Below are positions 56,205-59,066 of a stretch of 64,000 bases of DNA, in pieces (positions within the stretch are counted from its first letter, which is position 1; each line of letters starts with the position of its first letter). The stretch covers positions 25,051 through 89,050 of IMG/VR virus record IMGVR_UViG_3300020205_005279. One strand, written 5' to 3'. A model generated the notes under the pieces. The model had not been told where the DNA came from. It made no database searches and saw nothing but the letters and a program-made list of their open reading frames with translations. Both the position numbers and the translations under genes were made by a program. This stretch comes from a virus.

Positions 56205-56370
56205 CGTTAAAGGTGAAGTATTCGTGAATTTCAGCCATCACAGCCTCGTCAATGTGCTGCATAATAGCACTCGGCAAGGGGTTCTCTACGTGCTTGTGAG
56301 CACGTCCCCAGCCCCGACGCACACCCGCCTCAATTGCCATTTCTAAAATCACAAGAGTTTTAGGTTTCAT
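56191..56370 (-). CDS. Hypothetical protein (59 aa, below ORF-track cutoff)
   Basis: MKPKTLVILEMAIEAGVRRGWGRAHKHVENP...EYFTF; ATGA-coupled to the polymerase stop. Confidence 0.7.
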   Translation of the reverse strand: MKPKTLVILEMAIEAGVRRGWGRAHKHVENPLPSAIMQHIDEAVMAEIHEYFTFNDETL

Positions 56371-59066
56371 TTTGTTTCTCCGAACATAGAATTAAACACT
56401 GGAACTAGGTCTTGGATGGTGACTGATTTGCCATCACCTTCGGTTTTTTGTTGTGAGACGGTCTTAGTATTAGAGTCGGCTGACTTTCTAAAGATTTTGT
56501 CAATTTCAATAGATGAGAGCCAGGCATTAGCCACAGGAAGTTCGTACATCTCATAATTATACCTCATCCAGGCCCAACACCACACGTGAGCAACCTGGAA
56601 AAGAGTAGCAACTTTCTTGGCTTGGGCCTCAGGGCAGAGATACAAGATGCTATCATGGACACTCATGCAAAACTCTGCATCTAGCTCGTACTCCTTAATC
56701 AACCACTCCATAGCGGTCATAAAGGCGTGGAGCATAGCACTTCCGGTGGATTGAATACACCAGTTATTACGCATTGTCCAGAAGTCAGTTCCTACAGTCG
56801 AAGGACGGAAAGAGGTGGACATCTTAGTCCCGCTCAGAGGATTGATAGGGCAGGGTAGGTTTGCCACCCGGGCCATTTCATTATAGGCGTATGAGTCGGA
56901 TCCGCCGATGAGCGTTTGTGAGAGCCTCGAGGCCTTCTCGCCTTTCTTGATTTTAATGAGTTTTTTGCCCATGACCATGGCATCTTTCATCGGGATGGTT
57001 TTATTTCCCTTGCGAATAGTATTGGCCAGGGTCTTCGCCCCACACCCATAGAGCATACCATAGTTACATCCTTTGGCCACAGCTCTAGAGATCCCAATGG
57101 CACTGGCGGTCATGGAGTGCATGTCCGTGCCATCGTCTTTAGACCCTGCAAGGATCGAGTGGGAAAACTGTGTACTCCCGGCAACTTTGTGATAGGAGTC
57201 GGCAAAAATCGAAGCAACCACGGCCTCTTGGGCGTCAAAGTCCGACTCGACAAATACATAACCCTCGGGGGCTTGGACACGGGTCTTGATTTCGCTGCCA
57301 ATTTTATCGTACTTGGGGTCGGGGACAGTAAGCCAGAGGTTTTCTCCTGCTCGATTGGTAGAGGTGTTGTGGGGTACTGAGGCCGGAACAATTAGATTGA
57401 ATTGTTTGCCATCAGGGGTTTTGACCGGCTCAATGTTTTGTTCTCGCACCCGTGAGCGAACAGAGGTCCAGTAGGCGACATTGATTGCAAGGCCGATGAG
57501 TTCCCGGGCTTCTGTAAGGTCAGAGGTGAGAACACCAGACTCAAAATCTTCTACGTAATCTTTAGTAAGAACATTGCCTACATTGACCCCTTCTCCGTCT
57601 TTGTGAGGAAGGCGCAAATACAAACCACTATCCTGGTCCATATAACACCAGCCTTTGTCCGTGAAGAAGTGGATGGGCTGATCGTCCCACTTGAGGCGAA
57701 GGAGCAGGTGAGAGAGACGGTTCTTTGTAGAAATTCCCTCCACGGTAGGTTTGCCATCGACAAGGTCTTTTGCAGAAACACTCCTCACCCACTTGGGGAC
57801 CCCGTACCACTTTGAGCTAGGTTTACCGGCCTTGGTGAGTTTAAAGTTCGCCTCCCAGTCAAGTTGTGAGAGCCAAGGATCGGCCTTAATATCCTCATCG
57901 GTAATTTCGCCCTCGTTCCAAGACTCATAGAGCTCCTTAGCCATTTGGCTTAGAGTTTTTTCTTGTTTGGCAATGGAAGAATGCCAGGCCTTTTCACACG
58001 ACTCAAACCACCCCATCCAGTCCGAAACGACCGGGAGCTTTGCTCCGGCAACACCGAAGTGCCCCGCCAATGTGGTCAGTGAGGGGTTATTTTGGAGATA
58101 CTTTAGTACGAGAATAGAGTACAACTCAAAGGTAATTTTGACGTCATTGACAGCATATTGAATAAGATTATCGCGGTCAAGGACAAAGTCTTCCATTGAG
58201 GTAGCATCCACAAAAGTATTTCTAATCTTCTTATCTTCCTGCTCGAGGGGGATGGCCGGACGGCAATGGAAGTTGTAACAATCAATGAGGTTATTCATTG
58301 CGCCTTGATCGGCCCAAATCGGATCGGCTTTGTACGAGGATTTTTTGGATTGCTTTTGCACATACCACCATCGCTGCCCCGATGCTAGCCCGGAGACATT
58401 GATATGCGCGCTCATCGTATCAAACCACGAGTTGGTTTTTCCGAGGACGTAGGCTTCCTGCGTCCGAGGGCGGTCATAGGCTACGTTATGGGCGATAAAG
58501 AGGCCATCCTTTTGCCCCAATGGCACGAGCATCGGCTCATAGGGGATTTTTGAATTTACAAAACTTGGATGCATCCAGATATAATAAGCCTTATTCGTCA
58601 CTGCAGTGGCAAGGATTGGGTGGGCAAAGTCACTTCCCTGCACAAAAGTTTCGCAGTCAAAAACCCCGATGGTTTCTTCAATGCCATCGACAACTTCCGG
58701 AGAACCGTCAAATGGATACTTGACCCAGCCTGCGTACATAAAGTATTTGGTTTTGTCAGGGGGTTCTGGGATTTCTACGTAGGCAAAATCTTTCATCAAC
58801 TTTACACGATCTTTGCAGACTTCTTTGGATATGACATCAAAGTGAGTTTTGATCGAGTTGGCTTTAAGCTCCGGAAGAGCAAAGTCGTCAATGAAAAAGT
58901 TTGGGGGATTTTTTATCGGAAACTCCACGCCAAAATTCTCCATCTCTTCTTTGATTGAGGAGATGGCTTTTTTCTCTGGTGTTTTGACAACAACCCCCTC
59001 GCCGAACACTTTGGCATTCATGGAGTCGGAAAGGACTACATACCCGAGGGAGTTGAGCTTTGACAT
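56367..59066 (-). CDS. Family A DNA polymerase, mitochondrial Pol-gamma-like
   Basis: Exo FDCET, HNVAYDR, YAVND; gamma-type blocks DTMSAH..SG, LDW, LPHKDG..NVG, IGSEIK..VQAP, GTDMHS.TA; motifs A DFDAQE, B RAVAKGCNYGMLYG, C VHDS. Confidence 0.92.
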   Translation of the reverse strand: MSKLNSLGYVVLSDSMNAKVFGEGVVVKTPEKKAISSIKEEMENFGVEFPIKNPPNFFIDDFALPELKANSIKTHFDVISKEVCKDRVKLMKDFAYVEIPEPPDKTKYFMYAGWVKYPFDGSPEVVDGIEETIGVFDCETFVQGSDFAHPILATAVTNKAYYIWMHPSFVNSKIPYEPMLVPLGQKDGLFIAHNVAYDRPRTQEAYVLGKTNSWFDTMSAHINVSGLASGQRWWYVQKQSKKSSYKADPIWADQGAMNNLIDCYNFHCRPAIPLEQEDKKIRNTFVDATSMEDFVLDRDNLIQYAVNDVKITFELYSILVLKYLQNNPSLTTLAGHFGVAGAKLPVVSDWMGWFESCEKAWHSSIAKQEKTLSQMAKELYESWNEGEITDEDIKADPWLSQLDWEANFKLTKAGKPSSKWYGVPKWVRSVSAKDLVDGKPTVEGISTKNRLSHLLLRLKWDDQPIHFFTDKGWCYMDQDSGLYLRLPHKDGEGVNVGNVLTKDYVEDFESGVLTSDLTEARELIGLAINVAYWTSVRSRVREQNIEPVKTPDGKQFNLIVPASVPHNTSTNRAGENLWLTVPDPKYDKIGSEIKTRVQAPEGYVFVESDFDAQEAVVASIFADSYHKVAGSTQFSHSILAGSKDDGTDMHSMTASAIGISRAVAKGCNYGMLYGCGAKTLANTIRKGNKTIPMKDAMVMGKKLIKIKKGEKASRLSQTLIGGSDSYAYNEMARVANLPCPINPLSGTKMSTSFRPSTVGTDFWTMRNNWCIQSTGSAMLHAFMTAMEWLIKEYELDAEFCMSVHDSILYLCPEAQAKKVATLFQVAHVWCWAWMRYNYEMYELPVANAWLSSIEIDKIFRKSADSNTKTVSQQKTEGDGKSVTIQDLVPVFNSMFGETK

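Follow-up and report, generated by a model that had tools for sequence, protein, structure and literature searches.

A Pol gamma family DNA polymerase in a TIM5-like contractile-tailed phage contig

Phage Pol gamma family enzymes and the polymerase of the window

Pol-gamma-like polymerases have been known in cyanophages since 2011–2012, and the TIM5-like lineage already uses one as a marker; the "mitochondrial-like DNA polymerase" of S-TIM5, published in 2012 (Sabehi et al. 2012), is the signature gene of that lineage, and primers published for it match in silico at >90% amino acid identity (Baran et al. 2022, PMC10087341). Other phage members of the family are found in A-HIS1 and A-HIS2 (Chan et al. 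2011), S-CBWM1, and Mic1 (PMC7156551), the last with an intron-split polymerase gene; the functionality of phage gamma-like enzymes is still unproven (PMC10201439). Outside this family, T7 gp5 and gp4 serve as the model for the mitochondrial Pol gamma/Twinkle replisome.

The window analyzed here, a 64,000-nt stretch of an IMG/VR virus contig (IMGVR_UViG_3300020205_005279, positions 25,051 to 89,050), contains a complete gene for a polymerase of this type (Table 1), with an ATG start and zero internal stops. A sequence-only reading of this DNA had called the ORF Pol-gamma-like, and the homology searches uphold that call far beyond chance. The window polymerase matched PF18136 with E = 4.2e-52 (177.5 bits, against a gathering cut-off of 26.7) and PF00476 with E = 7e-14 (52.1 bits, against a cut-off of 34.3; aa 587–824). 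Using phmmer, it matched yeast Mip1 at E = 1.1e-119 and human and mouse POLG at approximately 1e-90; outside Pol gamma, the best family A match, a PolI, reached only 4e-4. An AF2 model of the protein (pLDDT 92.6) had Pol gamma structures as its top 35 Foldseek matches (TMq 0.78–0.89), followed by T7 DNAP (0.37–0.40); the superposition that had been proposed as a check thus came out in favor of Pol gamma. Trees grouped the window polymerase with POLG to the exclusion of the outgroups (support of 0.91 in FastTree and 99 in IQ-TREE, the latter an SH-aLRT value from a quick tree, as are the IQ-TREE supports given below), with only three outgroups, all on long branches (T7 gp5, E. coli PolA, and an actinophage PolA). 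The gamma-specific RR-loop pair R852–D1107 is replaced in the window polymerase (N571 and A777); this loss does not bar family membership, as the pair is a subfamily trait that several other phage members also lack. The window polymerase is a member of the Pol gamma family (PF18136 plus PF00476; PolA cluster 2 of Czernecki et al. 2023) and belongs to none of the T7, SPO1, and PolA groups.

Table 1. Features of the polymerase gene and its upstream neighbors (positions are those of the window).
Feature	Position	Strand	Remark
Complete Pol gamma family DNA polymerase gene	56367..59066	-	899 aa plus stop
3'-5' exonuclease domain, aa 61–320	58107..58886	-	PF18136 "DNA mitochondrial polymerase exonuclease domain"
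Spacer/linker, aa 321–478	57633..58106	-	Collinear with yeast Mip1
Family A polymerase domain, aa 479–897	56376..57632	-	Aligned to Mip1 residues 520–957
Motif A SDFDAQE, aa 608–614	57225..57245	-	Residue alignment
Motif B SRAVAKGCNYGMLYG, aa 660–674	57045..57089	-	Residue alignment
Motif C H804-D805-S806 (human H1134-D1135-E1136)	56649..56657	-	Residue alignment
T570-N571-R572, equivalent of the Pol gamma RR-loop tip	57351..57359	-	Residue alignment
A777, equivalent of human D1107 (salt-bridge partner of R852)	56736..56738	-	Residue alignment
Calcineurin-like metallophosphoesterase, upstream neighbor of the polymerase	59370..60113	-	Syntenic with the S-TIM5 gene that directly precedes the polymerase
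DenV-like pyrimidine-dimer DNA glycosylase, second upstream neighbor	60010..60582	-	PF03013

Domain order and fold are those of Mip1 (PDB 9c51) and human and mouse POLG (TM 0.78–0.89), and Exo I–III as well as polymerase motifs A–C align with these enzymes, at 24–29% identity in structural alignments. The exonuclease residues are intact (Exo I D137/E139, Exo II D198, and Exo III Y304/D308). The spacer is short like that of Mip1, consistent with a single-subunit enzyme; the spacer insertions of animal POLG are missing, and mouse POLG segments ~466–531 and ~586–708 (9g74 chain) have no counterpart in it. The window polymerase also lacks a mitochondrial presequence and the ~300-aa C-terminal extension of Mip1. 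In the polymerase domain, both metal-binding aspartates are present (D609, the motif A metal ligand equivalent to human D890, and D805), as is the steric-gate glutamate (E614, human E895), while motif C ends in Ser instead of Glu. Motif B contains R661, K665, Y669, and Y673 (human Y955); Y669 corresponds to human Y951, confirming the Tyr that had been read at the ddNTP-discriminating position. This Tyr is common to Mip1, POLG, and T7 gp5, a family A enzyme that also has a proofreading exonuclease and is the closest non-gamma structural neighbor (at a TM of just 0.37–0.40). A-HIS and S-CBWM1, by contrast, have Phe at this position; together with Mic1, they show 29–34% identity to the window polymerase (tblastn) and share its exonuclease and polymerase motifs.

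The sequence-only reading had also listed 11 motif strings as a gamma-specific series. Eight are exact and three were mis-spaced by one or two residues (the corrected spacings are N.LG...LS......VF, LPHKDG...NVG, and GG..S...N). Most of these motifs are indeed common to fungal and animal POLG and to phage gamma-like enzymes, and either lacking or impossible to align in T7 gp5 and E. coli PolA; LPHKDG..NVG and DTMS..QR, however, are variable in fungal POLG, and T7 also aligns over the LLRLKW stretch.

Placement in the TIM5-like lineage and relation to eukaryotic POLG

The window polymerase is a full-length collinear homologue of the polymerases of the Aurunvirus isolates S-TIM5, S-TIM66, S-TIM61, and S-TIM54 (70.8% full-length amino acid identity), and 57 of the 77 ORFs of the contig are collinear with S-TIM5 positions 27.8–133 kb, with a mean identity of 54%. 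In the IQ-TREE analysis, it lies inside a TIM5-like clade (support of 100), with S-TIM5 nearest among the sampled sequences. The contig is from a TIM5-like (Aurunvirus-related) phage, and its polymerase is not a new lineage; the proposal of an additional phage lineage fails against a polymerase published in 2012 with which this one shares 71% identity. Neither is the gene rare, as had been supposed, since >120 metagenomic clusters (90% identity) belong to the TIM5-like clade, 90 IMG/VR contigs match a clade-only alignment, and the whole Pol gamma family, eukaryotes included, comprises 1373 clusters at 50% identity. The cultured phages of this lineage are near-identical Red Sea isolates, and the contig documents a divergent branch that is probably from fresh water; the window polymerase is ~29% divergent from theirs at the amino acid level, and the source-like sequencing run comes from a freshwater metagenome (runs containing a share of ≤0.12 of the polymerase gene's words were not counted as habitat evidence). 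At 71% identity to S-TIM5, the window polymerase falls below the >90% range of the published primers, which would probably miss this branch; TIM5-like diversity of this kind was left unresolved by Baran et al. (2022).

Both FastTree (165 taxa) and IQ-TREE under LG+C20 PMSF (40 taxa) placed the TIM5-like polymerases among phage enzymes only, in a clade shared with S-CBWM1 and A-HIS (support of 1.0 and 98, respectively), apart from the eukaryotic POLG/Mip1 clade (support of 99), which pairs with Mic1-like phages (support of 94). An immediate sister relationship between TIM5-like phages and eukaryotic Pol gamma, or descent of the latter from this lineage, as closeness to the origin of POLG would have it, could be argued from the best PDB similarity of the window polymerase (fungal Mip1), from the motif B Tyr it has in common with POLG, and from gamma-specific motifs common to both from end to end. 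We regard this reading as extremely improbable, as both trees nest the TIM5-like enzymes elsewhere, an AU test rejects an exclusive clade of TIM5-like and eukaryotic POLG sequences (delta lnL 263, p = 1e-55), and the TIM5-like clade lacks the R852–D1107 pair, which Mic1-like relatives (e.g., P0175) retain. The phylogenetic check proposed earlier thus gave a divided answer, in that the window polymerase does not branch with the T7/SPO1/PolA groups but is not sister to POLG either; Mic1-like phages are nearer. Metagenomes contain a large family of phage Pol gamma enzymes, and it is the Mic1-like ones, not the TIM5-like, that adjoin eukaryotic POLG in the trees; arguments on a phage origin of POLG should center on Mic1-like enzymes.

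The N-A-S triad and motif C of TIM5-like polymerases

In Pol gamma, R852 of the gamma-specific RR loop is salt-bridged to D1107 (Euro et al. 2011). At the tip of this loop, the window polymerase has N571 in place of R852, while R572 (human R853) is invariant; Ala replaces D1107, and motif C reads HDS. The HDS, noted by the sequence-only reading and confirmed here, is not an oddity of one gene, as it is fixed across the TIM5-like clade. The human triad R852/D1107/E1136 is replaced by N/A/S throughout this clade, S-TIM5 and its close relatives included, with the motif C Ser and the Ala at the D1107 equivalent each present in 118 of 118 TIM5-like sequences. The R-D-E triad, in contrast, is found in 100 of 136 other Pol gamma family members, and the A-HIS, S-CBWM1, and Mic1 polymerases keep HDE. 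The clade-wide N-A-S pattern indicates that the salt bridge of the RR loop has been lost, together with the glutamate of motif C; we found no report of this clade-wide replacement in the literature, and HDS is a trait of the clade. An HDS motif C is also present in an unrelated phage PolA (Pikmin).

All 118 members of the clade have intact catalytic residues, and the clade keeps both metal-binding aspartates and the equivalent of K1191. Both metal-ligand Asp, the steric-gate Glu, R661, K665, Y669, Y673, and K861 are invariant over the 118 clusters, down to 53% identity, suggesting purifying selection on polymerase function. A Klenow mutant of E883, the residue equivalent to the Ser found here, showed a 26-fold decrease in kcat (PMC3241644), and the activity of the TIM5-like enzymes may thus be altered; human E1136 and R852 are disease positions, and mutations at the human positions corresponding to N/A/S cause Alpers disease. 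It is conceivable, though we consider it rather doubtful, that TIM5-like polymerases are a Pol gamma subtype with a function of its own, with a rebuilt primer-terminus and RR-loop region and different catalytic properties. If so, they could differ in fidelity, in the metals they use, or in how well they tolerate modified nucleotides, and would represent a natural "suppressor background" for POLG disease positions. The replacement of three conserved, disease-linked active-site positions provides a concrete biochemical hypothesis that is cheap to test.

An AGT-like glycosyltransferase is conserved in the TIM5-like lineage, and the S-TIM5 annotation lists ThyA as well as ThyX; two papers that place S-TIM5 in a DNA-modification context do so through its dCMP deaminase only.

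Role in replication, host, and genome context

The complete S-TIM5 genome and a complete 159-kb relative contain one Pol A only, with no Pol B and no Pol III alpha. The window polymerase, a single-chain enzyme of the Pol gamma family, is very probably the replicase of a divergent contractile-tailed phage of the TIM5-like group, most likely a freshwater cyanophage. Its one chain carries an N-terminal proofreading 3'-5' exonuclease, a Mip1-like short spacer, and a family A domain with Tyr at the ddNTP position, and would probably act without an accessory subunit of the Pol gamma B type; since complete relatives have no other polymerase gene, it may well be the sole replicase. As for partners, relatives likewise suggest that it would work with a flap endonuclease and a primase-helicase of the DUF5906 type (P4/D5-like, SF3), and not with SSB and a helicase of the T7 gp4/Twinkle type. 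Host and partners are deduced from relatives because the contig is only ~55% complete and contains no photosynthesis gene, primase, or helicase.

A DUF5906 "primase" is conserved in five of five relatives, and this putative primase-helicase stands where the T7 and mitochondrial replisomes have gp4 and Twinkle; the S-TIM5 primase had zero phmmer matches among PDB sequences. The Twinkle-like primase-helicase and SSB that the earlier reading had suggested looking for did not emerge. A DnaB-family (SF4) helicase (PF03796) was absent from the contig, complete S-TIM5, and five relatives (one complete) in searches whose controls responded, and no Toprim primase (PF13155) was found in the same genomes with Pfam models. 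For SSB (PF00436), the sole match was a stop-interrupted S-TIM5 sequence below the cut-off (E = 1e-3), which was dismissed as a candidate on both grounds. These Pfam models could have missed a non-canonical or divergent SSB or a non-canonical helicase. The SF1 helicase of S-TIM5 matched nothing in the five relatives, in a search run without a positive control.

Loss of the motif C glutamate and of the RR-loop pair raises the alternative that the enzyme is not a replicase and is instead a catalytically weakened repair or specialized polymerase, or a protein active as an exonuclease only. The kcat effect of Klenow E883 mutants and the disease association of human E1136 and R852 are in line with this, as is the DenV-like UV-repair glycosylase gene beside the polymerase gene. 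Such a role is nevertheless very unlikely given that complete genomes of the lineage have no other polymerase gene and that the polymerase residues have stayed invariant over 118 clusters, while the Pikmin PolA shows that HDS also occurs outside the clade. A TIM5-like phage of another freshwater bacterium, not a cyanophage, is unlikely, albeit less so than a non-replicative enzyme; no psbA, psbD, or other photosynthesis gene occurs within the 89-kb contig, a contig with a 57% identical polymerase (G005) lacks Photo_RC, and lagoon and lake homologues with <80% amino acid identity may infect other hosts (Baran et al. 2022, PMC10087341). However, S-TIM5 psbA and psbD map to a part of the genome outside this fragment, three of the four long contigs whose polymerases are 81–85% identical carry Photo_RC (one complete genome among them), and short stretches of the tRNA array are ~87–98% identical to tRNA regions of T4-like cyanophage genomes, all of which count against this alternative.

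The contractile tail proposed for this phage is confirmed by genes for a sheath, baseplate J, baseplate V, and a P2-I-type tail protein, found in the contig along with a Mu-like portal; the sheath gave a weak Pfam match, yet its product is 68% identical to the S-TIM5 sheath. A scan for promoters and terminators around the polymerase gene gave eight promoter-like sites, not above the chance expectation of 6.9; one of these scanned sites, sigma-70-like, lies ~23 nt upstream of the polymerase ATG. The true start of the metallophosphoesterase is probably an internal Met, as the ORF begun at the listed TTG overlaps the next one. The order of DenV-like gene, metallophosphoesterase, and polymerase adjoining the capsid-sheath block is that of S-TIM5, where the PF03013 family member at the matching relative position is annotated as a "DNA-binding protein". 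The contig differs from S-TIM5 in having extra genes (Dps/ferritin-like and DPBB) between the polymerase and the structural block, as well as a GC-rich insertion at 36.9–42.9 kb.

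A gamma-type polymerase in a TIM5-like phage

The polymerase gene is one open frame encoding 899 aa, with an ATG start and without stops (ORF listing and translation). Pfam assigned aa 61–320 to the DNA mitochondrial polymerase exonuclease domain (PF18136, E = 4.2e-52) and aa 587–824 to the family A polymerase domain (PF00476, E = 6.6e-14), and phmmer searches of all PDB sequences matched yeast Mip1 (E = 1.1e-119) and mouse and human POLG (~1e-96 to 1e-88), with Aquifex Pol I as the top non-gamma polymerase (4e-4). An AlphaFold2 model built from a 46-sequence alignment (mean pLDDT 92.6, pTM 0.90) was nearest to Pol gamma chains (yeast, human, and mouse), which made up the first 35 Foldseek matches in the PDB (query-normalised TM 0.78–0.89, E = 1e-65 to 1e-28); T7 DNA polymerase and further members of family A came well after these (TM 0.36–0.40, E ~1e-14). 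Domains, searches, structure, and the trees described below thus agree with the Pol gamma-like assignment made in the sequence-only reading. Eight of the 11 motif strings cited there as a gamma-specific series are literally present, while the spacing of three was wrong by 1–2 residues; most of the motifs recur in named POLG of fungi and animals as well as in other phage gamma-like enzymes, with T7 gp5 and E. coli PolA lacking them; a few are variable within fungal POLG, and T7 also aligns over the LLRLKW stretch. The phmmer alignment with Mip1 is collinear over the whole length (query 3–476 to Mip1 13–484; query 479–897 to Mip1 520–957), whereas spacer stretches ~466–531 and 586–708 of the mouse POLG chain have no counterpart, so the phage enzyme shares the compact layout of Mip1, which the literature describes as active as a single subunit.

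Among 50,697 phage records searched by tblastn, the polymerases of S-TIM5, S-TIM66, S-TIM61, and S-TIM54 were 70–71% identical over the full length, followed by S-CBWM1 (34%), Mic1 (32.5%, split gene), A-HIS2 (31%), and A-HIS1 (29%). The window covers bases 25051–89050 of an IMG/VR contig with an estimated completeness of 55%. The contig has S-TIM5 homologues for 57 of its 77 ORFs, is collinear with S-TIM5 27.8–133 kb (mean identity 54%), and shares with it the gene order DenV-like glycosylase, metallophosphoesterase, polymerase. The contractile tail proposed earlier is borne out by genes for a tail sheath, baseplate J and V, and a P2-I-type tail protein, encoded along with a Mu-like portal, Mu-like protease, capsid, and terminase; PhoH, RNR small subunit, thioredoxin, a sigma-70-like factor, and 16 tRNAs are also present. 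Rather than an additional phage lineage, as had been proposed, the contig represents a divergent branch, probably from fresh water, of the already published TIM5-like lineage, to which its polymerase belongs. Only one sequencing run, labelled freshwater metagenome, has nearly the whole gene (99% of its sampled words), and it is possibly the source sample. No photosynthesis gene was found in the 89,050-bp contig; S-TIM5 psbA and psbD sit in a region outside its coverage, and a photosystem reaction-centre gene is carried by three of four long IMG/VR contigs with polymerases 81–85% identical, one of the three being a 159-kb genome that has terminal repeats and is 100% complete. Judged from sequence, the contig probably derives from a cyanophage.

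Abundance of the family and relation to eukaryotic POLG

TIM5-like cyanophages have been quantified using the mitochondrial-like polymerase as signature gene; isolates are nearly identical to one another, and lagoons and lakes are the source of the environmental homologues with <80% aa identity, for which hosts are unknown (Baran et al. 2022, PMC10087341). The gamma-bearing cyanophages of the Mic1 paper are A-HIS1/2, S-TIM5, S-CBWM1, and Mic1, and the motif B Tyr of Mic1 and S-TIM5 was already pointed out there (PMC7156551). Although the gene had been called rare rather than unprecedented, the family is not rare in sequence data: a word search yielded >120 clusters (at 90% identity) that are 53–96% identical to the window protein and in many cases carry the JGI label "DNA polymerase gamma 1", an exhaustive search yielded 1373 representatives at 50% identity (E ≤ 1e-30 in 490), and 90 IMG/VR contigs matched.

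Of the 262 sequences that we aligned, three served as outgroups (T7 gp5, E. coli PolA, and the PolA of actinophage Pikmin); the others were TIM5-like clusters, other metagenomic representatives of ~900 aa, representatives of 1000–1700 aa (eight of those sampled being named POLG of fungi or animals), and the cultured phages. In a FastTree phylogeny (LG+G, 165 taxa), the gamma family, window protein included, was split from all three outgroups (0.91), in line with the earlier expectation; 79 tips, among them A-HIS, S-CBWM1, and the TIM5-like clade, formed a clade made up of phages alone (support 1.0), and in a second group eukaryotic POLG was preceded by Mic1 and a small number of short metagenomic sequences. 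IQ-TREE (40 taxa, LG+C20+F+G4 with PMSF, SH-aLRT support) agreed, supporting the gamma family (99), eukaryotes (99), eukaryotes plus Mic1-like sequences (94), the phage clade holding the TIM5-like sequences (98), and the TIM5-like clade itself (100). A position close to the source of Pol gamma, as previously suggested, is not supported: the clade nests among phages, Mic1-like sequences are nearer, and the AU test rejected the best tree with an exclusive TIM5-like and eukaryote clade (delta lnL 262.8, p = 1.2e-55). Among the sequences compared, other phages lie nearer to eukaryotic POLG than the TIM5-like lineage does. Because the outgroup branches are long, these trees do not fix the root inside the gamma family or the direction of transfer. 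A few representatives, P0148 (1254 aa), P0150, P0178, and P0198, exceed 1000 aa yet fall inside phage clades rather than with eukaryotes, and an intron splits the Mic1 gene; insertions (inteins, introns, or fusions) thus seem recurrent in phage gamma-like genes.

Active-site replacement in the TIM5-like clade

Exonuclease residues D137, E139, D198, Y304, and D308 and polymerase residues D609, E614, R661, K665, Y669, and D805 were invariant across 118 TIM5-like clusters, while Y673 was kept in 108 and replaced by Phe in the other 10. Both active-site features singled out from the sequence were recovered: Y669 (human Y951) is the Tyr at the ddNTP-discriminating position, and motif C reads HDS. 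The third motif C position is Ser in 118/118 TIM5-like sequences, S-TIM5 included, while 129 of the 136 other family members have Glu there; the unrelated actinophage PolA likewise reads HDS. A scan for clade-signature columns gave six, three of which (N571, A777, and S806, or N-A-S) fall within polymerase active-site motifs. Motif offsets equate these three with human R852, D1107, and E1136, and ungapped alignment to named eukaryotic POLG bears this out. R852 and D1107 form a gamma-specific salt bridge steadying the RR loop, and E1136 is proposed to position K1191 (Euro et al. 2011, PMC3241644); the Klenow E883 mutant shows a 26-fold lower kcat, and recessive Alpers mutations hit R852 and E1136 (PMC3241644). 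The K1191 equivalent, K861, is kept. The nearest outgroup of the clade, protein P0127, has S-S-E, which places loss of the salt bridge ahead of loss of the Glu. Strong conservation elsewhere suggests that the enzyme is active, with a remodelled periphery. The clade-wide N-A-S replacement is the sole element for which no report was found in the literature searched, and it merits a simple biochemical test.

Replication genes and other features of the lineage

The gamma-like gene was the only Pol A match in complete S-TIM5, the complete 159-kb relative, and the window contig, and none of the three had a match for Pol B or Pol III alpha. A search for a Twinkle-like primase-helicase and SSB, suggested in the sequence-only reading, found no DnaB-type helicase or Toprim domain in the window contig, S-TIM5, and five relatives, and just one sub-threshold, stop-interrupted SSB match, in S-TIM5 (controls responded); the T7/mitochondrial trio is thus apparently not carried by the lineage. 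The S-TIM5 "DNA primase" has a DUF5906 domain (phrog_25243) and is kept in 5/5 relatives (53–63% identity). A search without positive control found no counterpart of the S-TIM5 SF1 (RecD/Pif1-like) helicase in the five relatives, and a flap endonuclease is annotated. Thioredoxin is the processivity factor of T7 DNA polymerase; the contig thioredoxin may simply serve RNR. The thioredoxin and sigma-70-like genes are both conserved in S-TIM5 (~70% identity).

S-TIM5 also has an AGT-like gene (T4 DNA alpha-glucosyltransferase family), with a weak, sub-threshold counterpart in the same relative place in a complete relative, and is annotated with both ThyA and ThyX plus dCMP deaminase; this combination hints that DNA may be sugar-modified in the lineage.

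Features of the contig and of TIM5-like relatives (window coordinates unless a record is named)
Feature	Coordinates	Strand	Remarks
Thioredoxin and sigma-70-like genes	L004:1850-2921 (contig 19850-20924)		Contig part just before window; side by side, adjoining terminase
GC-rich block	36861-42900		Nine ORFs without S-TIM5 homologue
PF21722 glycine-rich-domain proteins	37439-38398; 38405-39373		Adjacent paralogues in GC-rich block
Dps/ferritin-like gene	53729-54142	+	Between structural block and polymerase; no S-TIM5 counterpart
DPBB/RlpA-like lytic transglycosylase gene	54206-54595	-	Between structural block and polymerase; no S-TIM5 counterpart
Five small ORFs	55.2-56.2 kb		Absent from S-TIM5
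Polymerase	56367-59066	-	
Metallophosphoesterase/DenV-like glycosylase ORFs	59370-60582		Overlap by ~100 nt
tRNA array	60828-63984	-	16 genes
HNH endonuclease gene	60982-61455		Interrupts tRNA array
DUF7201 coiled-coil gene	61828-62271		Interrupts tRNA array
"tRNA-His" call	63154-63245		92 nt; unusual anticodon ATG
AGT-like gene, S-TIM5	L013:6754-8031		Adjoins psbA
AGT-like locus, relative G002	G002:C1:5993-6421		
AGT-like locus, relative G004	G004:C1:112096-112314		

The GC-rich block (52–53% vs ~44% elsewhere) is inserted in an otherwise collinear region, and its 812-aa ORF had no match in a Pfam search. The metallophosphoesterase ORF has a TTG start at 60113; its conserved part begins near an internal Met ahead of KKYCIIGDLHG, so translation probably starts further downstream. 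Short stretches of the tRNA array are ~87–98% identical to tRNA regions of T4-like cyanophage genomes.
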